Shown here one piece after another: positions 1 through 54,629 of a stretch of DNA of 64,000 nucleotides. Made by a program: the position numbers and the translations under genes. The stretch lies in assembly GCF_056712565.1 (NCBI RefSeq), contig NZ_CM160072.1. One strand, written 5' to 3'. Position 1 is the stretch's first letter. Every line of letters starts with the position of its first letter. The notes below the pieces were generated by a model. The model ran no database searches, was not told the origin of the DNA, and saw only the letters and a program-made list of their open reading frames with translations.

Positions 1-1049
1 ACTTTCTTGAGACGCCGGTTCAGCTCCGGGTTGGGACACTTGAGATCAACAAGAACATGCTGCTATGGATCAATGACGCTCTGATGGCGGTATTTTTCCT
101 GTTGGTTGGTCTGGAAGTTAAACGCGAGCTGATGCAAGGTTCGCTGGCCAGTCTGCGCCAGGCGGCATTTCCTGTTATTGCCGCAATCGGCGGGATGATT
201 GTCCCGGCATTGCTCTATCTGGCTTTTAACTATGCCGATCCGATTACCCGCGAAGGCTGGGCAATCCCGGCGGCGACTGACATTGCCTTTGCACTTGGTG
301 TGTTGGCGCTGTTGGGAAGTCGTGTTCCGTTAGCGCTGAAGATCTTTTTGATGGCTCTGGCTATTATCGACGATCTTGGGGCCATCATTATCATCGCATT
401 GTTCTACACTAATGACTTATCGATGGCCTCTCTTGGCGTCGCGGCTGTAGCAATTGCGGTACTCGTGGTATTGAATCTGTGTGGTGTACGCCGCACGGGC
501 GTTTATATTCTGGTTGGCGTGGTGCTGTGGACAGCGGTGTTGAAATCGGGGGTTCACGCAACCCTGGCTGGCGTCATTGTCGGCTTCTTTATTCCTTTGA
601 AAGAGAAGCATGGGCGCTCTCCGGCTAAACGTCTGGAGCATGTTTTGCATCCATGGGTGGCGTATCTGATTTTGCCGCTGTTTGCATTTGCTAATGCTGG
701 CGTTTCACTGCAAGGTGTCACGCTGGAAGGTTTGACCTCCATCCTGCCATTAGGGATCATCGCTGGTTTGCTGATTGGCAAGCCACTGGGTATTAGTCTG
801 TTCTGCTGGTTGGCGCTGCGTTTGAAATTGGCACATCTGCCAGAGGGAACGACTTACCAGCAAATTATGGCGGTTGGTATCCTGTGCGGTATCGGTTTTA
901 CTATGTCTATCTTTATTGCCAGCCTGGCATTTGGTAGCGTAGATCCAGAACTGATTAACTGGGCAAAATTAGGTATCCTTGTCGGTTCAATTTCTTCGGC
1001 GGTAATTGGATATAGCTGGTTACGCGTTCGTTTACGTCCATCAGTTTGA
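1..1049 (+). CDS. nhaA: Na+/H+ antiporter NhaA, 5'-truncated by window edge
   Basis: ORF 57..1049 in frame with window start; polytopic membrane protein matching NhaA C-terminal ~330 aa; position upstream of nhaR. Confidence 0.9.
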
Positions 1050-1108
1050 CAGGACGATGTACTGGGGAGCCATAAACGGCTCCCTTTTCATTGTTATCAG
1101 GGAGAGAA

Positions 1109-2014
1109 ATGAGCATGTCTCATATCAATTACAACCACTTGTATTACTTCTGGCATGTCTACAAAGAAGGTTCTGTGGTTGGCGCAGCGGAGGCGCTTTA
1201 TTTAACACCACAAACCATTACCGGGCAGATCCGGGCGCTGGAAGAGCGCCTGCAAGGGAAACTATTTAAGCGTAAAGGACGTGGTCTGGAACCCAGCGAA
1301 CTGGGGGAACTGGTCTATCGCTATGCCGATAAAATGTTCACCTTAAGCCAGGAAATGCTGGATATCGTCAACTATCGCAAAGAGTCCAACTTATTGTTTG
1401 ATGTTGGTGTGGCAGATGCACTTTCCAAACGTCTGGTCAGCAGTGTTCTGGATGCCGCAGTTGTGGAAGACGAGCAGATCCATCTACGCTGTTTCGAATC
1501 GACGCACGAGATGCTTTTAGAGCAGTTGAGTCAGCATAAACTGGATATGATCATCTCTGACTGTCCGATCGATTCCACTCAGCAGGAAGGGCTGTTTTCC
1601 ATGAAAATTGGCGAATGTGGTGTCAGTTTCTGGTGCACTAACCCACTACCAGAAAAGCCGTTTCCTGCCTGTCTTGAAGAGCGTCGTTTACTTATTCCGG
1701 GGCGTCGCTCAATGTTGGGGCGTAAGCTATTAAACTGGTTTAACTCCCAGGGCTTGAACGTCGAAATTTTGGGTGAGTTTGATGATGCTGCGTTGATGAA
1801 AGCCTTTGGGGCGACGCATAACGCTATTTTCGTTGCACCTTCGCTTTACGCTAATGATTTCTATAACGATGACTCGGTTGTGGAGATAGGCCGTGTTGAG
1901 AACGTGATGGAAGAGTACCACGCGATTTTTGCCGAAAGGATGATTCAGCACCCTGCAGTACAGCGTATCTGCAATACAGACTATTCTGCGCTGTTTACTC
2001 CAGCTTCAAAATAA
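1109..2014 (+). CDS. nhaR: LysR-family transcriptional activator NhaR
   Basis: ORF 1091..2014; start moved to ATG 1109 ([14 protein letters not shown]...), 301 aa; LysR HTH N-terminus. Confidence 0.9.
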
Positions 2015-2056
2015 ACATTTGTACTTTGCAGGCCGAATTTTGGCCTGCAGATGGAT

Positions 2057-2087
2057 ATAAAAAAACCCGCCAGAGCGGGTTTTTTTA
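2057..2087. terminator. Bidirectional rho-independent terminator between convergent nhaR and rpsT
   Basis: A-run, GC stem cccgc/gcggg, T-run (aaaaaaacccgccagagcgggttttttt). Confidence 0.6.
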
Positions 2088-2109
2088 CAAAGCTGACAAC
2101 AACAGGCAA

Positions 2110-2394
<285 letters not shown>

Positions 2395-2475
2395 CTATAT
2401 GGACAATTCAAAGGCCGAGGAATATGCCCTTTTAGCCTTCTTTTGTCAATGGATTTGTGCAAATAAGCGCCGTTA

Positions 2476-2694
2476 ATGTGCCGGCACTCGTTACGTAGTG
2501 ATGGCGCAGGATTCTACCAGCTTGCGGGGTGTGAATACAGCTTTTCCGCGAGAAAAATTGCAGCAGGCGGTCAGTTTCTTCCCATGATTTGCGCCATAGC
2601 AATGAAAAGCCACTTCTTTCTGATTTCGGTACTCAATCGCCGGTTAACCTTGACCGCTGTACAAGGTATACTCGGACGATTTTCACTGTTTTGA
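2476..2694 (+). CDS. yaaY: Small hypothetical ORF of doubtful coding status (yaaY-like)
   Basis: 72 aa ORF in the rpsT-ribF intergenic region at the position where K-12 annotates yaaY; no functional features. Confidence 0.3.
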   Translation: MCRHSLRSDGAGFYQLAGCEYSFSARKIAAGGQFLPMICAIAMKSHFFLISVLNRRLTLTAVQGILGRFSLF

Positions 2695-2701
2695 GCCAGA
2701 C

Positions 2702-3643
2702 ATGAAGCTGATACGCGGCATACATAATCTCAGCCAGGCCCCGCAAGAAGGGTGTGTGCTGACTATTGGTAATTTCGACGGCGTGCATCGCGGTCATCGC
2801 GCGCTGTTACAGGGCTTGCAGGAAGAAGGGCGCAAGCGCAACTTACCGGTGATGGTGATGCTTTTTGAACCTCAACCACTGGAACTGTTTGCTACTGATA
2901 AAGCCCCGGCACGGCTCACCCGGCTGCGGGAAAAACTGCGTTATCTTGCAGAGTGTGGCGTTGATTACGTGCTGTGCGTGCGTTTTGACAGGCGTTTTGC
3001 GGCGTTAACCGCGCAAAACTTCATCAGTGATCTTCTGGTGAAGCACTTGCGGGTAAAATTTCTTGCCGTAGGTGACGATTTCCGCTTTGGCGCTGGTCGT
3101 GAAGGCGATTTCTTGTTATTACAGAAAGCGGGCATGGAATACGGCTTCGATATCACCAGCACGCAAACTTTTTGCGAAGGTGGCGTGCGTATCAGCAGCA
3201 CCGCCGTGCGTCAGGCGCTTGCGGATGACAATCTGGCTCTGGCAGAAAGTTTACTGGGGCACCCGTTTGCCATCTCCGGGCGTGTAGTCCACGGTGATGA
3301 ATTAGGGCGCACTATAGGTTTCCCGACGGCGAATGTACCGCTACGCCGTCAGGTTTCCCCGGTGAAAGGGGTTTATGCGGTAGAAGTGTTGGGCCTTGGC
3401 GAAAAGCCGTTACCCGGCGTTGCAAACATCGGAACACGCCCAACGGTTGCCGGTATTCGCCAGCAACTGGAAGTGCATTTGTTAGATGTTGCAATGGACC
3501 TTTATGGTCGCCATATACAAGTAGTGCTGCGTAAAAAAATACGCAATGAGCAGCGATTTGCATCGCTGGACGAACTGAAAGCGCAGATTGCGCGTGATGA
3601 ATTAACCGCCCGCGAATTTTTTGGGCTAACAAAACCGGCTTAA
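2702..3643 (+). CDS. ribF: Bifunctional riboflavin kinase / FMN adenylyltransferase
   Basis: 313 aa ORF MKLIRGIHNL...; upstream of ileS. Confidence 0.95.
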   Translation: MKLIRGIHNLSQAPQEGCVLTIGNFDGVHRGHRALLQGLQEEGRKRNLPVMVMLFEPQPLELFATDKAPARLTRLREKLRYLAECGVDYVLCVRFDRRFAALTAQNFISDLLVKHLRVKFLAVGDDFRFGAGREGDFLLLQKAGMEYGFDITSTQTFCEGGVRISSTAVRQALADDNLALAESLLGHPFAISGRVVHGDELGRTIGFPTANVPLRRQVSPVKGVYAVEVLGLGEKPLPGVANIGTRPTVAGIRQQLEVHLLDVAMDLYGRHIQVVLRKKIRNEQRFASLDELKAQIARDELTAREFFGLTKPA

Positions 3644-3685
3644 GCCTGTTATGTAATCAAACCGAAATACGGAACCGAGAATCTG

Positions 3686-6502
3686 ATGAGTGACTATAAA
3701 TCAACCCTGAATTTGCCGGAAACAGGGTTCCCGATGCGTGGCGATCTCGCCAAGCGCGAACCGGGAATGCTGGCGCGTTGGACTGATGATGATCTGTACG
3801 GCATCATTCGTGCAGCTAAAAAAGGCAAAAAAACCTTCATTCTGCATGATGGCCCTCCTTATGCGAATGGCAGTATTCATATTGGTCACTCGGTTAACAA
3901 GATTCTGAAAGACATTATCATTAAGTCCAAAGGGCTTTCTGGATATGACTCGCCGTATGTGCCTGGCTGGGACTGTCATGGTCTGCCAATCGAGCTGAAA
4001 GTAGAGCAAGAATACGGTAAGCCGGGGGAGAAATTCACCGCCGCTGAGTTCCGCGCCAAGTGCCGCGAATACGCTGCGACCCAGGTTGACGGTCAGCGCA
4101 AAGACTTTATCCGTCTGGGCGTGCTGGGCGACTGGTCGCACCCGTACCTGACCATGGACTTCAAAACTGAAGCCAACATCATCCGCGCGCTGGGCAAAAT
4201 CATCGGCAACGGTCACCTGCACAAAGGCGCGAAGCCGGTGCACTGGTGCGTTGACTGCCGTTCTGCACTGGCAGAAGCGGAAGTTGAGTATTACGACAAA
4301 ACTTCTCCGTCCATCGACGTCGCTTTCCTGGCGGTCGATCAGGATGCGCTTAAAACGAAATTTGGCGTAAGCAATGTTAACGGCCCAATTTCGCTGGTTA
4401 TATGGACCACCACGCCGTGGACGCTGCCTGCTAACCGCGCAATCTCCATTGCACCTGATTTTGATTATGCGCTGGTGCAAATCGACGGTCAGGCCGTGAT
4501 CCTCGCGAAAGATCTGGTTGAAAGCGTAATGCAGCGTATCGGCGTTAGCGATTACACCATTCTTGGCACGGTGAAAGGTGCCGAGCTGGAACTGTTGCGC
4601 TTTACCCATCCGTTTATGGACTTCGATGTTCCGGCAATTCTCGGCGACCACGTTACGCTGGATGCCGGTACCGGTGCCGTTCATACCGCGCCAGGCCACG
4701 GTCCGGACGACTATGTGATCGGTCAAAAATATGGTCTGGAAACCGCTAACCCGGTTGGCCCGGACGGCACTTATCTGCCGGGTACTTACCCGACTCTGGA
4801 TGGCGTTAACGTCTTCAAAGCGAACGATATTGTCATTGCGTTGTTGCAGGAAAAAGGCGCACTGTTGCACGTTGAGAAAATGCAACACAGCTATCCGTGC
4901 TGCTGGCGTCATAAAACGCCGATCATCTTCCGCGCGACGCCGCAGTGGTTCGTCAGCATGGATCAGAAAGGTCTGCGTGCGCAGTCACTGAAAGAGATCA
5001 AAGGCGTGCAGTGGATCCCTGACTGGGGCCAGGCGCGTATCGAGTCGATGGTTGCTAACCGTCCTGACTGGTGTATCTCTCGTCAGCGTACCTGGGGCGT
5101 GCCGATGTCACTGTTCGTGCACAAAGACACAGAAGAACTGCATCCGCGTACTCTCGAACTGATGGAAGAAGTGGCAAAACGCGTTGAAGTTGACGGCATT
5201 CAGGCGTGGTGGGATCTCGATGCGAAAGAGATCCTCGGCGACGAAGCTGACCAGTATGTGAAAGTACCGGATACGCTGGATGTATGGTTTGACTCCGGAT
5301 CTACCCACTCTTCCGTTGTTGATGTGCGTCCGGAATTTGCCGGTCACGCAGCGGACATGTATCTGGAAGGTTCTGACCAACACCGTGGCTGGTTCATGTC
5401 TTCCCTGATGATCTCTACCGCGATGAAGGGCAAAGCGCCATATCGTCAGGTACTGACTCACGGCTTTACCGTGGATGGTCAGGGTCGCAAGATGTCTAAA
5501 TCCATCGGTAACACCGTTTCGCCGCAGGATGTGATGAACAAACTGGGTGCGGATATTCTGCGTCTGTGGGTGGCATCAACCGACTACACTGGCGAAATGG
5601 CCGTTTCTGACGAGATCCTGAAACGTGCTGCCGACAGCTATCGTCGTATCCGTAACACCGCGCGCTTCCTGCTGGCAAACCTGAACGGTTTTGATCCGGC
5701 AAAAGATATGGTGAAACCGGAAGAGATGGTGGTACTGGATCGCTGGGCCGTAGGTTGTGCGAAAGCGGCACAGGAAGACATCCTCAAAGCGTACGAAGCA
5801 TACGATTTCCACGAAGTGGTACAGCGTCTGATGCGCTTCTGCTCCGTTGAGATGGGGTCCTTCTACCTCGACATCATCAAAGACCGTCAGTATACCGCCA
5901 AAGCGGACAGCGTGGCGCGTCGTAGCTGCCAGACTGCGCTGTATCACATCGCAGAAGCGCTGGTTCGCTGGATGGCACCAATCCTCTCCTTCACCGCTGA
6001 TGAAGTGTGGGGTTACCTGCCGGGCGAACGTGAAAAATACGTCTTCACCGGCGAGTGGTACGAAGGCCTGTTTGGTCTGGCAGACAGTGAAGCAATGAAC
6101 GATGCGTTCTGGGACGAGCTGTTGAAAGTGCGTGGCGAAGTGAACAAAGTCATTGAGCAAGCGCGTGCCGATAAGAAAGTGGGCGGCTCGCTGGAAGCGG
6201 CAGTAACCTTGTATGCAGAACCGGAACTGGCGGCGAAACTGACCGCGCTGGGCGATGAATTACGATTTGTCCTGTTGACCTCCGGCGCTACCGTTGCAGA
6301 CTATAACGACGCACCTGCTGATGCCCAGCAGAGCGAAGTCCTCAAAGGGCTGAAAGTCGCGTTGAGTAAAGCCGAAGGTGAGAAGTGCCCTCGCTGCTGG
6401 CACTACACCCAGGATGTCGGCAAGGTGGCGGAACACGCAGAAATCTGCGGCCGCTGTGTCAGCAACGTCGCCGGTGACGGTGAAAAACGTAAGTTTGCCT
6501 GA
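3686..6502 (+). CDS. ileS: Isoleucyl-tRNA synthetase
   Basis: 938 aa ORF with class I aaRS HIGH ([11 protein letters not shown]) and KMSKS motifs. Confidence 0.97.
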
Positions 6503-6996
6503 TGAGTCAATCGATCTGTTCAACAGGGCTACGCTGGCTGTGGCTGGTGGTAGTCGTGCTGATTATCGATCTGGGCAGCAAATACCTGATCCTCCAGAAC
6601 TTTGCTCTGGGGGATACGGTCCCGCTGTTCCCGTCGCTTAATCTGCATTATGCGCGTAACTATGGCGCAGCGTTTAGTTTCCTTGCCGATAGCGGCGGCT
6701 GGCAGCGTTGGTTCTTTGCCGGTATTGCGATTGGTATTAGCGTGATCCTGGCAGTGATGATGTATCGCTCGAAGGCCACGCAGAAGCTAAACAATATCGC
6801 TTACGCGCTGATTATTGGCGGCGCACTGGGCAACCTGTTCGACCGCCTGTGGCACGGCTTCGTTGTCGATATGATCGACTTCTATGTCGGCGACTGGCAC
6901 TTCGCCACCTTCAACCTTGCCGATACTGCCATTTGTGTCGGTGCGGCACTGATTGTGCTGGAAGGTTTTTTACCTTCTAAAGCGAAAAAACAATAA
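6502..6996 (+). CDS. lspA: Lipoprotein signal peptidase II
   Basis: 164 aa membrane protein; ATG overlaps ileS stop (tgATGa), translational coupling. Confidence 0.95.
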
Positions 6997-7003
6997 TAAA
7001 CCC

Positions 7004-7072
7004 TGCCGGATGCGATGCTGACGCATCTTATCCGGCCTACAGATTGCTGCGAAATCGTAGGCCGCATCCGGC
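7004..7072. repeat. REP (repetitive extragenic palindrome) element
   Basis: gccggatgcg / cgcatccggc palindromic units typical of E. coli REP. Confidence 0.55.
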
Positions 7073-7103
7073 AAAAATCCTCAAAATATAAGAGCAAACC
7101 TGC

Positions 7104-7553
7104 ATGTCTGAATCTGTACAGAGCAATAGCGCCGTCCTGGTGCACTTCACGCTGAAACTCGATGATGGCACCACCGCTGAGTCTACCCGCAACAACGGTA
7201 AACCGGCGCTGTTCCGCCTGGGTGATGCTTCTCTTTCTGAAGGGCTGGAGCAACACCTGCTGGGGCTGAAAGTGGGCGATAAAACCACCTTCTCGCTGGA
7301 GCCAGATGCGGCGTTTGGCGTGCCGTCACCGGACCTGATTCAGTACTTCTCCCGCCGTGAATTTATGGATGCAGGCGAGCCAGAAATTGGCGCAATCATG
7401 CTTTTTACCGCAATGGATGGCAGTGAGATGCCTGGCGTGATCCGCGAAATTAACGGCGACTCCATTACCGTTGATTTCAACCATCCGCTGGCCGGGCAGA
7501 CCGTTCATTTTGATATTGAAGTGCTGGAAATCGATCCGGCACTGGAGGCGTAA
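7104..7553 (+). CDS. fkpB: FKBP-type peptidyl-prolyl cis-trans isomerase
   Basis: 149 aa [26 protein letters not shown]... Confidence 0.9.
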
Positions 7554-7554
7554 C

Positions 7555-8505
7555 ATGCAGATCCTGTTGGCCAACCCGCGTGGTTTTTGTGCCGGGGTAG
7601 ACCGCGCTATCAGCATTGTTGAAAACGCGCTGGCCATTTACGGCGCACCGATATATGTCCGTCACGAAGTGGTGCATAACCGCTACGTGGTCGATAGCCT
7701 GCGCGAGCGTGGGGCTATCTTTATTGAGCAGATTAGCGAAGTACCGGACGGCGCGATCCTGATTTTCTCCGCACACGGTGTTTCTCAGGCAGTACGTAAC
7801 GAAGCGAAAAGCCGCGATTTGACGGTGTTTGATGCCACCTGTCCGCTGGTGACCAAAGTGCATATGGAAGTCGCCCGCGCCAGCCGTCGTGGTGAAGAAT
7901 CTATTCTCATCGGTCACGCCGGGCACCCGGAAGTGGAAGGGACGATGGGCCAGTACAGCAACCCGGAAGGGGGAATGTATCTGGTCGAATCGCCAGACGA
8001 TGTGTGGAAACTGACGGTCAAAAACGAAGAGAAGCTCTCCTTTATGACCCAAACCACGCTGTCGGTGGATGACACGTCTGATGTGATCGACGCGCTGCGT
8101 AAACGCTTCCCGAAAATTGTCGGTCCGCGCAAAGATGACATCTGCTACGCCACGACTAACCGTCAGGAAGCGGTACGCGCCCTGGCAGAGCAGGCGGAAG
8201 TAGTACTGGTGGTTGGTTCGAAAAACTCCTCCAACTCCAACCGTCTGGCGGAACTGGCCCAGCGTATGGGCAAGCGCGCGTTTTTGATTGACGATGCGAC
8301 AGATATCCAGGAAGAGTGGGTGAAAGAGGCGAAATGCGTCGGCGTGACTGCTGGCGCATCAGCTCCGGATATTCTGGTACAGAACGTAGTCGCACGTTTA
8401 CAGCAGCTTGGCGGTGGCGAAGCCATTCCGCTGGAAGGTCGTGAAGAAAACATTGTTTTCGAAGTGCCGAAAGAGCTGCGTGTCGATATTCGTGAAGTCG
8501 ATTAA
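7555..8505 (+). CDS. ispH: 4-hydroxy-3-methylbut-2-enyl diphosphate reductase (IspH/LytB)
   Basis: ORF 7471..8505 trimmed to ATG 7555 ([19 protein letters not shown]...), 316 aa; starts 2 nt after fkpB stop. Confidence 0.95.
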
Positions 8506-8530
8506 GTCATTAGCAGCCTAAGTTATGCGA

Positions 8531-8559
8531 AAATGCCGGTCTTGTTACCGGCATTTTTT
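8531..8559 (+). terminator. Rho-independent terminator after ispH
   Basis: gccggt...accggc stem followed by T-run (gccggtcttgttaccggcatttttt). Confidence 0.55.
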
Positions 8560-8570
8560 ATGGAGAAAAC

Positions 8571-9485
8571 ATGCGTTTACCTATCTTCCTCGATACAGAC
8601 CCCGGCATTGACGATGCCGTTGCCATTGCCGCCGCGATTTTTGCCCCCGAACTCGATCTGCAACTGATGACCACTGTCGCGGGTAATGTTTCGGTAGAGA
8701 AAACCACCCGCAACGCCCTGCAACTGCTGCATTTCTGGAATGTGGATATTCCGCTTGCCCAGGGCGCTGCCGTACCACTGGTTCGTGCGCCGCGCGATGC
8801 GGCATCTGTACACGGTGAATCGGGAATGGCTGGCTATGACTTTGTTGAACACAACCGTCAGCCACTGGGTATACCGGCGTTTCTGGCAATTCGTGATGCC
8901 CTGATGCGTGCGCCAGAGCCCGTTACCCTGGTGGCCATCGGCCCGTTAACCAATATTGCGCTGTTACTTTCACAATGCCCGGAATGTAAGCCGTATATTC
9001 GCCGTCTGGTGATCATGGGCGGTTCTGCTGGTCGCGGCAACTGCACACCAAACGCCGAGTTTAATATCGCTGCCGATCCAGAAGCGGCAGCCTGTGTCTT
9101 CCGTAGCGGCATCGAAATCGTCATGTGCGGTCTGGATGTCACCAATCAGGCAATATTAACCCCTGACTATCTCGCTACTTTGCCGGAATTGAATCGCACC
9201 GGAAAAATGCTACACGCCCTGTTTAGCCACTACCGTAGCGGCAGTATGCAAAGTGGACTACGTATGCACGATCTTTGCGCTATCGCCTGGCTGGTGCGCC
9301 CGGAATTGTTCACTCTCAAACCGTGTTTTGTCGCGGTAGAAACTCAGGGTGAATTTACCTCAGGCACGACGGTTGTTGATATCGACGGTTGCCTGGGCAA
9401 ACCAGCCAATGTACAGGTGGCGCTGGATCTGGATGTGAAAGGCTTCCAGCAATGGGTGGCTGAGGTGCTGGCCCTGGCGCTCTAA
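8571..9485 (+). CDS. rihC: Non-specific ribonucleoside hydrolase RihC
   Basis: 304 aa; N-terminal DTDPGIDDA nucleoside hydrolase motif. Confidence 0.9.
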
Positions 9486-9507
9486 TAATAAAACAAGGAA
9501 GTGTTCT

Positions 9508-9873
9508 ATGACGTATGGAGAAGCGTATCTGGAAGGGTGGAAAAACATCTTTAATTATGAAGGTGTTTCCAATCGCTTCGAGTTCTGGTCGTTTATGATT
9601 GGTAGTGGCGTTATCTGTCTGCTTCCGCTTTTATGTTGGTGGTTAGCGGTAACAATTAACAATGACTATGGTGTTTTCATTTTTTTTGCGCTGCCCGCGT
9701 CATTTATTTTAACGTTGATTTTTGCCATACCGGCGATAGCGTTAGCCGTCAGAAGGATGCACGATATCGGATATTCAGGGTGGTGGGTTACCATTGTCGT
9801 GTTGATCCCTGTTACGGGCGTAATTCTGCTTATACTGTGCTGCCTGCCGTCAAAGTCACAAGACCAGGCATAA
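9508..9873 (+). CDS. DUF805-family small inner membrane protein (strain-variable gene)
   Basis: 121 aa; three predicted TM helices; RRMHDIGYSGWW motif characteristic of DUF805/YhaH-like proteins; strong SD aaggaag 6 nt upstream of ATG. Confidence 0.75.
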   Translation: MTYGEAYLEGWKNIFNYEGVSNRFEFWSFMIGSGVICLLPLLCWWLAVTINNDYGVFIFFALPASFILTLIFAIPAIALAVRRMHDIGYSGWWVTIVVLIPVTGVILLILCCLPSKSQDQA

Positions 9874-10018
9874 TGACAGAGGGTATGACGCATCACTTTC
9901 TGCGTCATGCCTTTCACTGATATCCCTCCCTGTTTATCATTAATTTCTAATTATCAGCGTTTTTGGCTGGCGGCGTAGCGATGCGCTGGTTACTCTGAAA
10001 ACGGTCTATGCAAATTAA

Positions 10019-10855
<837 letters not shown>

Positions 10856-10907
10856 CCACAAGATATTTATGGTGATGCAAAAACAACACATTTAATTCGT
10901 TGAATAT

Positions 10908-10940
10908 AAAGGGCTTTAATTTTTGGCCCTTTTATTTTTA
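10908..10940 (+). terminator. Rho-independent terminator after dapB
   Basis: gggc...gccc stem followed by T-rich run (aaagggctttaatttttggcccttttattttt). Confidence 0.5.
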
Positions 10941-11159
10941 GTGTTATGCTTTTAAATCTAATGCAAATGCTGAAAATTACATGTTTTGTATTCTGTTTTT
11001 GTTGTTTTAATGTAAATTTTGACCATTTGGTCCACTTTTTTCTGCTCATTTTGATTTCATGCAATCTTCTTGCTGCGCAAGCGTTTTCCAGAACATGTTA
11101 TATGATCTTTTTGTCGCTTAATGCCTGTAAAACATGCATGAGCCACAAAATAATATAAA

Positions 11160-11310
11160 AAATCCCGCCATTAAGTTGACTTTTAGCTCCCATATCTCCA
11201 GAATGCCGCCGTTTGCCAGAAATTCGTCGGTAAGCAGATTTGCATTGATTTACGTCATCATTGTGAATTAATATGCAAATAAAGTGAGTGAATATTCTCT
11301 GGAGGGTGTT
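11160..11310 (+). promoter_or_regulatory. carAB tandem promoter/operator region with ARG-box-like sequences
   Basis: AT-rich region immediately upstream of carA containing tgaattaatatgcaaat and gtgaatattc motifs resembling ArgR boxes; assignment from known carAB regulation. Confidence 0.5.
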
Positions 11311-12459
11311 TTGATTAAGTCAGCGCTATTGGTTCTGGAAGACGGAACCCAGTTTCACGGTCGGGCCATAGGGGCAACAGGTTCGGCGGTTGGGGAAGTC
11401 GTTTTCAATACTTCAATGACCGGTTATCAAGAAATCCTCACTGATCCTTCCTATTCTCGTCAAATCGTTACTCTTACTTATCCCCATATTGGCAATGTCG
11501 GCACTAATGACGCCGATGAAGAATCTTCTCAGGTTCATGCCCAAGGTCTGGTGATTCGCGACCTGCCGCTGATTGCCAGCAACTTCCGTAATACCGAAGA
11601 CCTCTCTTCTTACCTGAAGCGCCATAACATCGTGGCGATTGCCGATATCGATACCCGTAAGCTGACGCGTTTACTGCGTGAGAAAGGTGCTCAGAATGGC
11701 TGCATTATCGCAGGCGATAACCCGGATGCGGCGCTGGCATTAGAAAAAGCCCGCGCGTTCCCAGGTCTGAACGGCATGGATCTGGCAAAAGAAGTAACCA
11801 CCGCAGAACCCTATAGCTGGACACAAGGGAGCTGGACACTGACCGGCGGCCTGCCAGAAGCGAAAAAAGAAGACGAGCTGCCGTACCACGTCGTGGCCTA
11901 CGATTTCGGTGCCAAGCGCAACATCCTGCGTATGCTGGTGGATAGAGGCTGTCGCCTGACCATCGTTCCGGCGCAAACTTCTGCGGAAGATGTGCTGAAA
12001 ATGAATCCGGACGGCATCTTCCTCTCCAACGGTCCTGGCGACCCGGCCCCGTGCGATTACGCCATTACCGCTATCCAGAAATTCCTCGAAACTGATATTC
12101 CGGTATTCGGCATCTGCCTCGGTCATCAGCTGCTGGCGCTGGCGAGCGGTGCGAAGACTGTCAAAATGAAATTTGGTCACCACGGCGGCAACCATCCGGT
12201 TAAAGATGTTGAGAAAAATGTGGTGATGATCACCGCCCAGAACCACGGTTTTGCGGTGGATGAAGCAACATTACCTGCAAACCTGCGTGTCACACATAAA
12301 TCCCTGTTCGACGGTACGTTACAGGGCATTCATCGTACCGATAAACCGGCGTTCAGCTTCCAGGGACACCCGGAAGCCAGCCCTGGTCCACACGACGCCG
12401 CGCCGTTGTTTGACCACTTTATCGCGTTAATTGAGCAGTACCGTAAAACCGCTAAGTAA
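11311..12459 (+). CDS. carA: Carbamoyl-phosphate synthase small (glutaminase) subunit
   Basis: ORF 11284..12459 trimmed to TTG 11311 ([12 protein letters not shown]...), 382 aa, SD ggaggg upstream; carA is known to use a UUG start. Confidence 0.93.
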
Positions 12460-12476
12460 TCAGGAGTAAAAGAGCC

Positions 12477-15400
12477 ATGCCAAAACGTACAGATATAAAA
12501 AGTATCCTGATTCTGGGTGCGGGCCCGATTGTTATCGGTCAGGCGTGTGAGTTTGACTACTCTGGCGCGCAAGCGTGTAAAGCCCTGCGTGAAGAGGGTT
12601 ACCGCGTCATTCTCGTGAACTCCAACCCGGCGACTATCATGACCGACCCGGAAATGGCTGATGCAACCTACATCGAGCCGATTCACTGGGAAGTGGTACG
12701 CAAGATTATTGAAAAAGAGCGCCCGGACGCGGTGCTGCCAACCATGGGGGGGCAGACGGCGCTGAACTGTGCGCTGGAGCTTGAGCGTCAGGGCGTGCTG
12801 GAAGAGTTCGGCGTCACCATGATTGGTGCCACTGCCGATGCGATTGATAAAGCCGAAGACCGCCGCCGTTTCGACGTAGCGATGAAGAAAATCGGTCTGG
12901 AAACTGCGCGTTCCGGTATCGCTCATTCAATGGAAGAAGCGCTGGCGGTTGCCGCTGAAGTTGGCTTCCCGTGCATTATTCGCCCATCCTTTACCATGGG
13001 CGGTAGCGGTGGCGGTATCGCTTATAACCGTGAAGAATTTGAAGAAATTTGCGCCCGCGGTCTGGATCTTTCTCCGACTAAAGAGCTGCTGATTGATGAG
13101 TCGCTGATCGGCTGGAAAGAGTACGAGATGGAAGTGGTGCGTGATAAAAACGACAACTGCATCATCGTCTGCTCTATCGAAAACTTTGATGCGATGGGCA
13201 TCCACACCGGTGACTCCATCACTGTCGCGCCAGCCCAAACGCTGACCGATAAAGAATATCAAATCATGCGTAACGCCTCGATGGCGGTACTGCGTGAAAT
13301 CGGCGTTGAAACCGGTGGTTCCAACGTCCAGTTTGCGGTGAACCCGAAAAACGGTCGCCTGATTGTTATCGAAATGAACCCACGCGTGTCTCGCTCCTCT
13401 GCGCTGGCGTCGAAAGCCACTGGTTTCCCGATTGCCAAAGTGGCGGCGAAACTGGCGGTGGGTTACACCCTCGACGAGCTGATGAACGACATCACCGGTG
13501 GGCGTACTCCGGCCTCCTTCGAGCCGTCCATCGACTATGTGGTTACTAAAATTCCTCGCTTCAACTTCGAGAAATTCGCCGGTGCTAACGACCGTCTGAC
13601 CACTCAGATGAAATCGGTTGGCGAAGTGATGGCGATTGGTCGCACGCAGCAGGAATCCCTACAAAAAGCGCTGCGCGGCCTGGAAGTGGGCGCAACTGGC
13701 TTCGATCCGAAAGTGAGTCTCGACGACCCGGAAGCGCTGACTAAAATCCGCCGCGAACTGAAAGATGCTGGCGCAGAGCGTATCTGGTATATCGCTGATG
13801 CCTTCCGCGCGGGCCTGTCTGTAGACGGTGTATTTAATTTGACCAACATTGACCGCTGGTTCCTGGTACAGATTGAAGAGCTGGTGCGTCTGGAAGAGAA
13901 AGTCGCAGAAGTGGGCATCACTGGCCTGCACGCTGAATTCCTGCGCCAGCTGAAACGCAAAGGCTTTGCCGATGCGCGTCTGGCAAAACTCGCGGGCGTG
14001 CGTGAAGCAGAAATCCGCAAGCTGCGCGACCAGTATGACCTGCACCCGGTTTACAAGCGCGTGGATACTTGTGCGGCAGAGTTCGCCACCGACACCGCTT
14101 ACATGTACTCCACTTATGAAGAAGAGTGCGAAGCGAATCCGTCCACCGATCGTGAAAAAATCATGGTGCTCGGCGGCGGCCCGAACCGTATCGGTCAGGG
14201 TATCGAATTCGACTACTGCTGTGTACACGCCTCGCTGGCGCTGCGCGAAGACGGTTATGAAACCATTATGGTTAACTGTAACCCGGAAACCGTCTCCACC
14301 GACTACGACACCTCTGACCGTCTCTACTTCGAGCCGGTAACTCTGGAAGACGTGCTGGAAATTGTGCGTATTGAGAAGCCGAAAGGCGTTATCGTCCAGT
14401 ACGGCGGTCAGACCCCGCTGAAACTGGCGCGCGCGCTGGAAGCTGCTGGCGTACCGGTTATCGGTACCAGCCCGGATGCCATCGACCGTGCGGAAGACCG
14501 TGAACGCTTCCAGCATGCGGTTGAGCGTCTGAAACTGAAACAACCGGCGAACGCCACCGTTACCACCATCGAAATGGCGGTTGAGAAAGCGAAAGAGATT
14601 GGCTACCCGCTGGTGGTGCGTCCGTCTTACGTTCTCGGCGGTCGGGCGATGGAAATCGTCTATGACGAAGCTGACCTGCGTCGCTACTTCCAGACAGCGG
14701 TCAGCGTATCTAACGATGCGCCAGTGTTGCTGGACCACTTCCTTGATGACGCAGTAGAAGTTGACGTGGATGCCATCTGCGACGGCGAAATGGTGCTGAT
14801 TGGCGGCATCATGGAGCATATTGAGCAGGCGGGTGTGCACTCCGGTGACTCCGCATGTTCACTGCCAGCTTACACCTTAAGTCAGGAAATTCAGGATGTG
14901 ATGCGCCAGCAGGTGCAGAAACTGGCCTTCGAACTGCAGGTGCGCGGCCTGATGAACGTGCAGTTTGCGGTGAAAAACAACGAAGTCTACCTGATTGAAG
15001 TTAACCCGCGTGCGGCGCGTACCGTTCCGTTCGTCTCCAAAGCCACCGGCGTACCGCTGGCAAAAGTGGCGGCGCGTGTGATGGCTGGCAAATCGCTGGC
15101 TGAGCAGGGCGTAACCAAAGAAGTTATCCCGCCGTACTACTCGGTGAAAGAAGTGGTGCTGCCGTTCAATAAATTCCCGGGCGTTGACCCGCTGTTAGGG
15201 CCAGAAATGCGCTCTACCGGGGAAGTAATGGGCGTGGGCCGCACCTTCGCTGAAGCGTTTGCCAAAGCGCAGCTGGGCAGCAACTCCACCATGAAGAAAC
15301 ACGGTCGTGCGCTGCTTTCCGTGCGCGAAGGCGATAAAGAACGCGTGGTGGACCTGGCGGCAAAACTGCTGAAACAGGGCTTCGAGCTGGATGCGACTCA

Positions 15401-15779: not shown

Positions 15780-16490
15780 TGCACAGAAAACCCCCAGCTA
15801 GGCTGGGGGTTCCGGAAAGCTTTCAGCTTTGAGCCAGTTATTAAAACCCCTTTTGATTTGTTAAAACACCTTGCGGTCTGGCAACTGCAAGTGTCAAACA
15901 AGAAATCAAAAGGGGGTCCCAATGGGGAACGAAAAGAGCTTAGCGCACACCCGATGGAACTGTAAATATCACATAGTATTTGCGCCAAAATACCGAAGAC
16001 AGGTGTTCTACAGAGAGAAGCGTAGAGCAATAGGCTGTATTTTGAGAAAGCTGTGTGAGTGGAAAAGTGTACGGATTCTGGAAGCTGAATGCTGTGCAGA
16101 TCATATCCATATGCTTGTGGAGATCCCGCCCAAAATGAGCGTATCAGGCTTTATGGGATATCTGAAAGGGAAAAGCAGTCTGATGCCTTACGAGCAGTTT
16201 GGTGATTTGAAATTCAAATACAGGAACAGGGAGTTCTGGTGCAGAGGGTATTACGTCGATACGGTGGGTAAGAACACGGCGAAGATACAGGATTACATAA
16301 AGCACCAGCTTGAAGAGGATAAAATGGGAGAGCAGTTATCGATTCCCTATCCGGGCAGCCCGTTTACGGGCCGTAAGTAACGAAGTTGGATGCAAATGTC
16401 AGATCGTGTGCGCCTGTTAGGGCGCGGCTGGTAAGAGAGCCTTATAGGCGCATTTGAAAAACCTCCGGCTATGCCGGAGGATATTTATTT
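15780..16490 (+). mobile_element. IS200-type insertion sequence (IS200/IS605 family), about 0.71 kb; boundaries approximate
   Basis: Contains a 152-aa HuH Y1 transposase gene; subterminal imperfect palindromes cccccagctaggctggggg (15791-15809) and cctccggctatgccggagg (16462-16480); carB-caiF spacer is about 710 bp longer than in K-12 (from memory). Confidence 0.8.
15922..16380 (+). CDS. tnpA: IS200 transposase TnpA (Y1 HuH family)
   Basis: ORF 15871..16380 trimmed to ATG 15922 (MGNEKSLAHTRWNCKYHIVFAPKYRRQ...), 152 aa; SD ggggg upstream. Confidence 0.9.
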   Translation: MGNEKSLAHTRWNCKYHIVFAPKYRRQVFYREKRRAIGCILRKLCEWKSVRILEAECCADHIHMLVEIPPKMSVSGFMGYLKGKSSLMPYEQFGDLKFKYRNREFWCRGYYVDTVGKNTAKIQDYIKHQLEEDKMGEQLSIPYPGSPFTGRK

Positions 16491-18673: not shown

Positions 18674-20227
18674 TTATTTCAGATTCTTTCTAATTATTTT
18701 CCCCGAGCAATTACGTGGCAGATCTTTTCTGATCTCCAGATAAGAGGGCACTTTAAATTTCGCCATATTCTGTTCACAGAAGCAGAAGAATTCCTCTTCG
18801 CTCAATGTTTCACCTTCATTCAGCACCACAAATGCTTTGATGGCTTCATCGCGAATCGAATCTTTAATACCCACAACCACGATATCCTGAATTTTTGGAT
18901 GGGTGGCGATGATATTTTCGAGCTCCACGCAGGAGACATTCTCGCCACCGCGTTTGATCATATTGCAGCGGCGATCGACGAAATAAAAAAAGCCCTCTTC
19001 GTCGCGGTATCCGGTATCGCCGGTATGTAGCCAGCCATCGGCTTCCAGCACTTTCGCAGTGGCTTTCGGGTTGAGAAAATACTCTTTGAAGATGGTTTTC
19101 CCTGGTACGCCTTTAATACAGATTTCACCGAGCTCACCAGCCGGGAGGGGACGATTGTGATCGTCGCGGATCTCCGCTTCGTAGCAAAAGCCCGCCCGAC
19201 CAATCGACGGCCAGCGCCGTTTATCGCCAGGGCGATCGCCGATAATGCCCACAATGGTTTCCGTCATCCCATAAGACGTCAGCAAGCGAACGCCGAAGCG
19301 TTCACAAAACGCGTCTTTTTCCTGTTCCGACAAGTTGAGATAAAACATCACTTCCCGCAGGCGGTGTTGCCGATCGTTCGCTGAAGGCGGCTGCACCATC
19401 AACGTACGAATCATCATCGGAATACATTCGGTAATGGTGGCGCGGTACTTCTGCACCTGTCCCCAGAAGGCGCGGGCGCTGTATTTCTCGACCAGCACAA
19501 AGGTGGCCCCGGCAGAAAACGCCGCCATCGCCGCAGTACACTGGCAATCGATATGAAACGCAGGCATTACCGTCAGGTAGACGTCATCGTCACGCAGTGC
19601 ACACTGCCAGGCGGAGTAATATCCAGCGAAGCGCAGGTTGTAATGGGTAATCACCACCCCTTTCGGTCGGGAGGTAGTGCCGGAGGTGAAGAGAATTTCC
19701 GCCGTATCGTCAGTCGATAGCGGCGGTGCATAGCACAAGGTGGCAGGTTGTTGATTTTTCAGTTGAGTAAACGAACTCACGCCATCATCAGCGGGAAGTG
19801 CCATATCTATCAGGCAAATGTGCCGCAACTGAGAGGCATCTTCCTGCTGAATCTGTTGATACATAGGATAAAATTGCGCACTGGTCACCAGCAGGCACGC
19901 CTGGCTATTTTGCAGGATCCACGTGCTTTCTTCGCGCAACAGGCGGGCGTTAATTGGCACCATAATCGCGCCAATTTTTGCCAGCCCGAACCAGCAAAAG
20001 ATAAATTCCGGGCAGTTGTCGAGATGTAGAGCAACCTTGTCGCCTTTGCGAATCCCCAGCGTATAAAACAGGTTTGCCGTGCGGTTAATCTCCTGATTTA
20101 ACTCAAGATAACTATACCGGTTAACGACTCCGCCGCTGGATTCACAAATCAGCGCCGTTTTATGACCGTAAACGTCCGCCAGATCGTCCCACATTTGACG
20201 TAGATGTTGTCCGCCAATGATATCCAT
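18674..20227 (-). CDS. caiC: Crotonobetaine/carnitine-CoA ligase
   Basis: ORF 18674..20242; start at ATG 20227 ([13 protein letters not shown]...), 517 aa; AMP-binding [10 protein letters not shown] motif. Confidence 0.9.
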
Positions 20228-20299
20228 TGCACCTCTATCCATTTTGTTCGTTTGTTATTGGGCGGGCGCTAGTCAGGCAAGTTGACTGACGCCACGCGT

Positions 20300-21535
<1,236 letters not shown>

Positions 21536-48159: not shown

Positions 48160-48438
48160 ACTCCTTCGTGCCGGATGCGCTTTGCTTATCCGGCCTACAA
48201 AATCGCAGCGTGTAGGCCTGATAAGACGCGTCGGCGTCGCATCAGGCGGTGAATGCCGGATGCGCTTTGCTTATCCGGCCTACAAATCCGGAACGCGTAG
48301 GCCTGATAAGACGCGCCAGCGCCGCATCAGGCGGTGAATGCCGGATGCGCTTTGCTTATCCGGCCTACAAATCCGGAACGCGTAGGCCTGATAAGACGCG
48401 TCAGCGTCGCATCAGGCGTTACATACCTGATGCGGCTA
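48160..48438. repeat. BIME: about three tandem ~100-bp units of paired REP palindromes between araD and araA
   Basis: tgccggatgcgctttgcttatccggcctacaaa...gtaggcctgataagacgcg..gcgtcgcatcaggcg repeated three times with small differences. Confidence 0.65.
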
Positions 48439-52837: not shown

Positions 52838-53351
52838 TAAGAAAGAAGGGGGGGAACCCCCTTGCTTTCTTCATCTGACGTTATTTATATATTTCACGGG
52901 GGATTAATTTTAGTTATTTTTAGTTGAATCGTTTTACCTGAATTATTTTTTTTCTTGATAAAATATCGACAACGATTTCTTTTTGTAAAAATAAAACGAA
53001 GGCTTATGTATCGGGATACCCATCATGAACATATTGTCCGGTTGCATCAGGAGAATATATCAAGCGGTTTGTTCATCGTAGGAACACCACATTGAGCGGT
53101 TATGGCAGGCACTTCACGCCACCATAAATGCCGTTCGATGTGGCAGTTGTTGAAAAAAGTACGGCATTCTATGAAAAACGCCAGTTACTCCCTCAGAGGA
53201 GAACATGGTCTGGCAAAAGTGTAGCGGCATCAGGCGCAGCTATCTTTGTAAATTCATTCATAAAATGAATTGTATACAAAAAAATATTGAAAAATAATAT
53301 TTTTCCTTATTGATATTATTTGCTATACGTTTTTTTTGAGGGGAGATTGTG

Positions 53352-54200
53352 ATGAGCAAACGTAACGATATTACTGATGGAATATTTGCAACAACGAAAA
53401 AGTATGGATTAGTTTATACCGAAGAGTTAGGTTGGATCGATTTGGGGCATGCTCAGGGACAAGATGCCAGAATATTAAAAAGAAAATTGGAGCAAGAACA
53501 TTTTTCAACATATTACGATGAATTTCATGATTGGTATTTTCCTGTTGATTATCATCAGGAAATGGGAATTCGGAAAAAAATATTAGGAGTAGATCTTACA
53601 TTTCATACCGGTGTTTATACGAAGGTTATGGTTCGTTCATGTCTTTCACCCACTCTTAAAGCAAGAGTTGCCTTAACGTTAATGTATGGAACTGCGAAGA
53701 GGTTTGAAGCATGGCAAAACTCATTTATTTTTAACTGGTATACTGATAGCGGATTTAGTGCAGAAGATTTAGTCTCAGACTTGATTGGTTTTTATCGTGT
53801 ATTTGGAACAGGCCCCGATCCACTTTTATTGGCAAAACCTTTATCTTACACAAAAGCCTTACAAATATGGGATACATATGGAGCGCCAGGGAATTTTAAA
53901 AATACTGAGTTTACGCCATTCTTATTTACAACCCATCCTCCTTTTAAAAAAAATCAACTAATAAAAAAGAAGCTTCCAGAATGGTTAAATTATATAAAGC
54001 CATTAGATGAGTCTTTTTCAATATTGTTATATAATCAATATAATAATAGACCTGTTACTAATTATTATAAAGATAAAAACAGAATAAATCATGAGTTGTA
54101 TAGTTCATTATCAAGTTCGGGAGCTATAAAGTTTTCAGAATCTCCCTTTGAAAGACCGCTTTTTCTTTTCTTAAACCCTCATTATCCGCACAGGTCGTGA
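53352..54200 (+). CDS. Hypothetical protein, 282 aa, no signal peptide or TM segment (island gene A)
   Basis: ORF 53349..54200; ATG 53352 preferred over GTG 53349 (SD gaggggag 7 nt upstream); MSKRNDITDGIFATTKKYGLVYTEELGWIDLGHAQG...; I cannot assign a family from sequence alone. Confidence 0.6.
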   Translation: MSKRNDITDGIFATTKKYGLVYTEELGWIDLGHAQGQDARILKRKLEQEHFSTYYDEFHDWYFPVDYHQEMGIRKKILGVDLTFHTGVYTKVMVRSCLSPTLKARVALTLMYGTAKRFEAWQNSFIFNWYTDSGFSAEDLVSDLIGFYRVFGTGPDPLLLAKPLSYTKALQIWDTYGAPGNFKNTEFTPFLFTTHPPFKKNQLIKKKLPEWLNYIKPLDESFSILLYNQYNNRPVTNYYKDKNRINHELYSSLSSSGAIKFSESPFERPLFLFLNPHYPHRS

Positions 54201-54206
54201 GTAGAG

Positions 54207-54629
54207 ATGTCAAAATATATTTATATTTTATTATCATTTTTAGTTTTATTCTTTATATTTTTCTATGCTTATATCTCATTGATGTCAAAGGAACATCACT
54301 ATACACAGCATGAACTTTCCCCATTTTTCCTTTATACGCCAGAGAGTTTGCGAAATTTGCCAAACATATCAAACGTAGCCGAGTATAGCTATTACTATAA
54401 TGTTGATGATATGCAAACAAGAGTGATTGTTACATGGCGAAATATAGATAACATTTTTCTTCAGAAAGCAAAGCTAATAGATTTTTTGAAAAGAATGGGA
54501 CCGAGTCTACAAAACGATTGTATATGGTTTTTTCATGATAAAAGTGATTATGCAAATAATTTCCAGCGTTATTGCATCATTGAGCACCGTGATTCTCTGC
54601 AGGTGGAATATTTTGAGACTATCGAATGA
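54207..54629 (+). CDS. Hypothetical small membrane-anchored protein, 140 aa (island gene B)
   Basis: Starts 6 nt after gene A stop on the same strand; N-terminal hydrophobic segment IYILLSFLVLFFIFFYAYISL followed by a ~115-aa soluble domain. Confidence 0.55.
   Translation: MSKYIYILLSFLVLFFIFFYAYISLMSKEHHYTQHELSPFFLYTPESLRNLPNISNVAEYSYYYNVDDMQTRVIVTWRNIDNIFLQKAKLIDFLKRMGPSLQNDCIWFFHDKSDYANNFQRYCIIEHRDSLQVEYFETIE

Follow-up and report, generated by a model that had tools for sequence, protein, structure and literature searches.

The variable nhaR-rpsT slot in its unoccupied state in a phylogroup B2 strain of Escherichia coli

Introduction

What does it signify when a genome of Escherichia coli lacks the insertion sequence that lies between nhaR and rpsT in strain K-12? 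In K-12 MG1655, a copy of IS1 (IS1A, insA1/insB1) is found at positions 19796-20563 between these two genes, and this nhaR-IS1A-rpsT arrangement was described in a 2025 paper (PMC12428005). In the sequence considered here (the window, viz. the whole stretch of 64,000 nucleotides that was analysed), the same two genes are separated by 95 bp (2015-2109), as indicated by both the open reading frames and the annotation. A preliminary description had reported this distance and the lack of IS1, had assigned the window to a non-K-12 lineage, and had named the alignment with MG1655 as the check; in this alignment IS1A is present in K-12 and absent from the window, and a BLAST search with the K-12 IS1A gives no match at this site or anywhere else in the 64 kb. 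The observation is correct, ordinary and in substance already known. As a lineage marker the absent IS1 is correct and matters little; an annotated type strain is published, and both the K-12 IS1A and the OI-1 island of O157:H7 are on record. However, the picture that this observation implies, in which K-12 represents this spacer plus IS1, is wrong. The useful correction is that K-12 is the derived state and that a short spacer is the norm across the family.

Lineage of the window and contents of the spacer

The window shows no mismatches to the E. coli type strain DSM 30083/ATCC 11775 over positions 1-14004 and is 99.974% identical to it over 14074-64000, which confirms that it is of non-K-12 origin. 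The type strain belongs to phylogroup B2 whereas K-12 is placed in another group (PMC4334874). The features of the region between nhaA and rpsT are as follows.

1 to 1049, plus strand: 3' part of nhaA, the gene start lying before the window (ORF; type-strain annotation of the identical sequence)
1109 to 2014, plus strand: nhaR, 301 codons, intact, with a TAA stop at 2012-2014 (ORF; type-strain annotation)
1441 to 2056, no strand: block of the W haplotype, comprising nhaR codons ~112-301 and the nhaR-proximal half of the spacer, which differs from every other E. coli class
2015 to 2109, no strand: nhaR-rpsT intergenic spacer of 95 bp, without gene, IS or island remnant
2025 to 2051, plus strand: hairpin 1, immediately following nhaR; stem of 12 bp, no U tract (folding)
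2056 to 2057, no strand: right-hand boundary of the variable slot, just before the terminator, and the exact end point of the islands of other E. coli; alignments with K-12, O157 and ST131-type sequences resume at 2057
2059 to 2086, no strand: symmetric intrinsic terminator A7-CCCGC-CAGA-GCGGG-T7, which folds on both strands
2110 to 2373, minus strand: rpsT, ribosomal protein S20 (ORF; type-strain annotation)

The same gene-free interval between nhaR and rpsT is found in the NCBI annotation of the identical type-strain sequence, and the NhaR protein encoded here is annotated as WP_000062878.1 in two genomes. The rpsT gene is 99.6-100% identical to that of all E. coli. For the 3' part of nhaA, the identity is 98.8% with the ST131 type and 92.9% with K-12. 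Over positions 1-1440 as a whole (nhaA and the 5' third of nhaR) the identity to K-12 is unusually low at 92.9-93.8%, versus ~97% downstream.

Variable gene content is also seen on the other side of nhaA. The type strain has, shortly before the start of the window (locus L085, 7986-11648), genes for an OmpK/Tsx-like channel, a sulfatase and a hypothetical protein between mokC and nhaA; ST131-type genomes share these three genes, which are absent from K-12 and O157. Since the genes between mokC and nhaA are variable, nhaAR is bracketed by two variable slots. Further features were noted along the window. A DUF805 gene (9508-9873, within 9480-9904) between rihC and dapB has no counterpart in K-12, where the alignment shows a gap, and an IS200C copy (15783-16483; tnpA at 15922-16380, minus strand) between carB and caiF is also absent from K-12. 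According to the type-strain annotation, a chromosomal ccdA and a frameshifted ccdB pseudogene are located between apaH and folA (32792-33343), and two hypothetical genes with an IS630 remnant between yabI and araC (53085-54629). The araA-araD intergenic region (48169-48434) contains a direct repeat with an offset of 85 bp and ~92% identity over 181 bp, which is probably a repeated extragenic element.

Hairpins and terminator in the spacer

The spacer had been described as holding only a bidirectional terminator. The terminator is indeed present at 2059-2086, but it is accompanied by one additional hairpin at 2025-2051. The spacer folds into two hairpins (2025-2051 and 2058-2087) with a z-score of -6.1, and none of 200 shuffled sequences folded as well. 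The nhaR-proximal hairpin has a folding energy of -18.7 kcal/mol (z-score -4.7) and, with 3 mismatches allowed, occurs in one copy in the 64-kb window, not in the many dispersed copies by which REP/BIME elements are recognised. Its stem is kept in E. marmotae, where the loop is different and a U4 tail is present. This hairpin probably protects the nhaR message or helps to end it. In strain STLEFF_47 (locus L004, 10689-12000), an IS3-family element is inserted in an otherwise window-type spacer at the position of window 2051-2053, at the 3' foot of this hairpin, and the 3-bp overlap would agree with a target duplication. In the same strain a K-12-like nhaA is joined to the W-type nhaR end.

The second hairpin is a G+C-rich stem-loop with an A run on its 5' side and a T run on its 3' side, and it folds on both strands as expected of a bidirectional intrinsic terminator. 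The element is found 21-26 nt past the rpsT stop codon in all 71 of the enterobacterial loci examined. It is located where the two convergent genes end and is conserved with compensatory changes in its stem, which is CCCGC/GCGGG in most loci and CCGGC/GCCGG in 8 of the 71, while the loops vary freely; in genera other than Escherichia, Citrobacter and Salmonella, the T run of the plus strand is conserved less well. This A7-stem-T7 hairpin serves as the rpsT terminator throughout the family and is present in the window in a fully symmetric form. Due to this symmetry it should also stop nhaAR transcripts, so that one element would end both convergent messages, that of rpsT on the minus strand and probably that of nhaAR on the plus strand. 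The terminator was called from folding, and a consensus terminator scan missed 2059-2086, probably because the stem is extended through the A/T pairs and no T tail is left. A search of positions 1000-3000 against Rfam 15 yielded no family at its gathering threshold; the best score was 32 bits versus a threshold of 54 (STnc370), and all of the matches were generic terminator look-alikes below threshold.

Occupation of the slot in E. coli and its relatives

The contents of the interval between nhaR and rpsT were counted in 5,426 complete E. coli genomes. A short contiguous spacer as in the window is present in 556 of them. A cassette encoding a GH31 glycoside hydrolase and an MFS transporter is found in 640 genomes, in 566 of these at 99% identity or above (including ST131 strains such as JJ1886) and in 74 at ~87%. 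The most common content, seen in 4,227 genomes and near-complete in 1,193 of them, is OI-1 or its remnants; this class includes the 574 genomes with the K-12 IS1 form. OI-1, or O-island 1 (z0020-z0025), has been described as a putative fimbrial cluster with six ORFs (PMC9387321); in strain Xuzhou21 it measures ~6.9 kb and five genes are annotated in it, viz. a hypothetical gene, an usher, a chaperone, a fimbrial subunit and espX1. The three states add up to 5,423 of 5,425 genomes and are nearly mutually exclusive. The same core flanks thus enclose alternative contents in genomes of one species, which is the mark of an island slot. In the window this variable slot, on which the nhaAR operon and rpsT converge, is intact and unoccupied. 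Further, as only 574 of the 5,426 genomes show the IS1 arrangement of K-12, a missing IS1 is by itself not diagnostic of lineage. No integrase or tRNA gene, as would characterise a site-specific island, is annotated in or beside either OI-1 or the GH31+MFS cassette. In the literature, no specific account was found of an nhaR-rpsT hotspot or of nhaR together with espX1.

A short spacer is the norm in Enterobacteriaceae: of the 70 enterobacterial species loci that carry both genes, 55 have an nhaR-rpsT spacer of at most 130 bp, 6 have one of 131-300 bp, and 9 have a longer one. Occupied slots are nevertheless seen in several relatives of E. coli. E. albertii and strain L007 contain decayed remnants of OI-1, and Escherichia sp. 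E1V33 has the GH31+MFS cassette at 87% identity. In C. werkmanii, C. youngae and K. spallanzanii the slot is filled by the same cassette, with a nucleotide identity of ~77%, and C. braakii has only a 293-bp remnant of it (the loci of this group are L014, L015, L017, L028 and L078, of which L017 is assigned from an equal gap of ~3.95 kb only). The presence of this cassette in other genera indicates that occupation of the slot is old and recurrent.

Linkage of the slot contents with the 3' end of nhaR

The differences between the window and other genomes are not limited to the spacer. Relative to the ST131 type, the window is identical over 1109-1440, differs densely from 1441 up to the nhaR stop, and is again 99.5% identical from 2057. 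In this block (1441-2004, the last ~190 codons of nhaR) the form present in the window, referred to here as W, shows 81% identity to ST131, and the same value is found against K-12, O157, E. albertii and two cryptic Escherichia; the latter are 86-97% identical to one another in this segment and constitute the K type. A comparison of W with K shows saturation at synonymous sites (pS 0.73), a dN of 0.05, an amino-acid difference of ~5% and a dN/dS of 0.02, a ratio of ~0.02 being also found for nhaR against all of its homologues. Saturation at synonymous sites together with a dN/dS of 0.02 indicates that W and K are both old, functional alleles.

The W block is present at 99.4% identity or above in 556 of the 5,426 genomes, all of which have the short spacer, and this is also the count of genomes with an empty slot; one genome has it at 90-95% identity. 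Other carriers of the block include Nissle 1917, UM146, NC101, Seattle 1946 and E2348/69, which we take to be B2 strains outside ST131. The identity classes of nhaAR (556, 573 and 4,296 genomes) mirror the slot states. The 3' end of nhaR co-varies with the content of the slot, with a sharp breakpoint at 1441. A pattern of this kind would arise if strains and species had exchanged the contents of the slot (nothing, GH31+MFS or OI-1) through homologous recombination in the genes on either side, with one crossover falling inside nhaR; the 190 codons at the 3' end of nhaR would then be expected to co-vary with the content.

Outside E. coli the W type was found in E. marmotae, for which one genome (GCA_031194715.1) was compared. 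Window and E. marmotae contig are collinear for 9 kb (93% identity), and the latter has a 102-bp spacer with both hairpins and a W-type nhaR 3' end, its W block being 90.4% identical to that of the window (88-90% in the block). When the E. marmotae block was compared with the E. coli genomes, only the 556 W genomes were matched, at 88%, and no intermediate lineage was seen. In neighbour-joining trees, which give the ingroup topology only as the Buttiauxella outgroup row was empty, W (window and E. marmotae) and K form sister groups within Escherichia. In a search for a donor of the W block, the best identity among the 80 species loci listed was 82% (these loci were reached through NhaR, and those with a species name did not include E. 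fergusonii, E. ruysiae or E. whittamii); E. marmotae, at 90%, is a relative and not the donor; and P0133 proved to be a B2 E. coli that carries one substitution. When proteins were searched with the last 204 amino acids of NhaR, no cluster was seen between 93% and 100% identity, and the cluster at 90% contains the NhaR of E. marmotae.

A third form of the nhaR end is found in Escherichia sp. MOD1-EC7003, where it is 88% identical to that of Kluyvera georgiana and ~79% identical to those of all other Escherichia. Downstream of nhaR in this strain (locus L019, 5382-10251) lies a different island, 4.3 kb or more in length, whose ORFs include a putative LacI-like regulator and a putative MFS transporter. 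MOD1-EC7003 represents an independent case of a foreign gene end that arrived together with the slot content.

A broader interpretation of these results is conceivable, although we would not go so far as to call it the probable one. The 3' half of nhaR and the slot may form a single exchangeable cassette whose very old haplotypes, saturated in their synonymous divergence, cross the borders of species and genera, W being present also in E. marmotae, K in E. albertii and a form similar to that of Kluyvera in MOD1-EC7003, with islands moving by replacement of homologous gene ends and not by means of an integrase, and with the empty allele as a long-maintained haplotype. If this is true, the empty allele of the window should not be interpreted as a trivial absence, but as a long-kept alternative haplotype. 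With moderate confidence, the deep W/K structure of the nhaR end can be regarded as the only element of this locus that is new, and it is so only mildly. The saturated divergence of the nhaR 3' end, linked with the slot, neatly illustrates how islands are replaced through homologous recombination in their flanks, and it could mislead phylogenies or MLST-like schemes in which this gene is included.

Which allele is older in phylogroup B2

Based on these comparisons, we are inclined to regard the W block with its short spacer as the older state in phylogroup B2, and the ST131 type, in which a K-type nhaR end is combined with GH31+MFS, as a recombinant. The 5' part of nhaR, which is common to the window and ST131, is 96.6% identical to E. 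marmotae (dS 0.20) and 93.8% identical to K-12 (dS 0.38). Because this shared part is nearer to E. marmotae than to K-12, the ST131 sequence switches its affinity at 1441 and it is this sequence that looks mosaic.

The reverse course of events is rather doubtful but deserves to be considered. The B2 ancestor may have possessed a K-type nhaR and the GH31+MFS cassette, and after the split from ST131 a foreign empty-slot piece of ~0.6 kb may have replaced the 3' end of nhaR and deleted the cassette. Such an event would agree with the flanks of 1441-2056, which on either side match the ST131 type fully or at 99.5% identity, and with the fact that the nearest relative of the W block outside E. coli is in another species, E. 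marmotae. The block also varies by 0.6% or less among the 556 genomes, as would be expected too if B2 strains outside ST131 had received it recently in a single import. However, E. marmotae is 10-12% away and so is not the donor, no closer donor was found among the 80 species loci or in the protein search, and the affinity of the shared nhaR 5' part again points to ST131 as the mosaic. Between the right junction and the terminator there are no more than ~14 bp, and an arm of this length is awkward for a homologous crossover; this position, together with the near-invariance of W in E. coli, keeps the single-import alternative viable. Further, since the GH31+MFS cassette is found in the same slot of other genera, the occupied slot could be old and the short spacers the result of repeated loss.

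The short spacer could also be thought to represent an in-situ deletion, in which an island was excised or precisely deleted to leave a scar of 95 bp. Deletion scars are known at this slot, as shown by the GH31 remnant in C. braakii and the decayed OI-1 of E. albertii and strain L007. However, the window contains no island-derived DNA, a homologue of the entire spacer is present in E. marmotae, and the neighbouring 564 bp of nhaR show 19% divergence, which a deletion cannot produce; due to these observations we consider this explanation very improbable.

Origin of the IS1A in K-12

The alignment of the window with K-12 shows 89.6% identity over 1-2004 (nhaA-nhaR) and 97.3% from 2057 onward; it breaks at 2004/2057, and 2005-2056 has no counterpart in K-12. 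The K-12 spacer of 1,194 bp consists of a 175-bp stub of OI-1, the 768-bp IS1A, and 251 bp made up of a second stub plus the terminator. Without IS1 it would still be 426 bp in length, of which ~373 bp are OI-1 stubs with no homology to window 2005-2056, and neither the left nor the right stub has a match in the window. The sequences flanking the K-12 IS1A correspond to the O157:H7-type island of Xuzhou21 at 5061-5297 (100%) and 11803-12068 (98.5%), so that IS1A replaces 6,505 bp of island, and no target-site duplication is present. A second strain, 39EVA (locus L091, 8738-9769), has the same right IS1A junction as K-12 (locus L001, 2622-3564), but their left junctions are 89 bp apart, 39EVA retaining 89 bp more of the island than K-12; it likewise has no target duplication. 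The shared right junction, the differing left junctions and the lack of a duplication point to nested IS1-mediated adjacent deletions of OI-1. In the lineage of K-12, IS1 would have landed upstream of espX1 inside OI-1 and subsequently deleted 6.5 kb leftwards, which would have left IS1A between two island stubs. The sequence comparison indicates that K-12 is in a derived, damaged state, reached by the acquisition of an island, the insertion of IS1 into it and an IS1-mediated deletion. It would, in our view, almost certainly be incorrect to interpret K-12 as the spacer of the window plus a transposed IS1, with the window in the pre-insertion state, since, although IS1A is indeed present in K-12 and missing here, the non-IS spacer of K-12 is OI-1 DNA unrelated to window 2005-2056, its IS1A is without a target duplication, and codons 112-301 of nhaR differ by 19% between the two.

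Taken together, it is likely that the window carries an unoccupied allele of the slot in which transcription would be stopped from both sides, that K-12 has passed from island to IS1 to deletion, and that the contents of the slot have been swapped by homologous recombination.

Comparison with known systems

In K-12 (b0020-b0023), the flanking genes, their convergent orientation and the terminator element of rpsT are the same as in the window. The OI-1 of O157:H7 fills exactly the slot of the window, from the nhaR stop to the rpsT terminator, and is absent from the window itself. The GH31+MFS cassette occupies the same slot as a 3.8-kb insert linked to a K-type nhaR 3' end, and the flanks of the ST131 type match the window up to 1440 and again from 2057. 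Lastly, the terminator of the window has the same A7-CCCGC-loop-GCGGG structure as the rpsT terminator of other Enterobacteriaceae, which in K-12 has been called strong (PMC12428005); however, the CAGA loop is specific to B2 genomes, and whereas the element in the window is fully symmetric through its plus-strand T7, the genera similar to Enterobacter have TTCTTT in its place.
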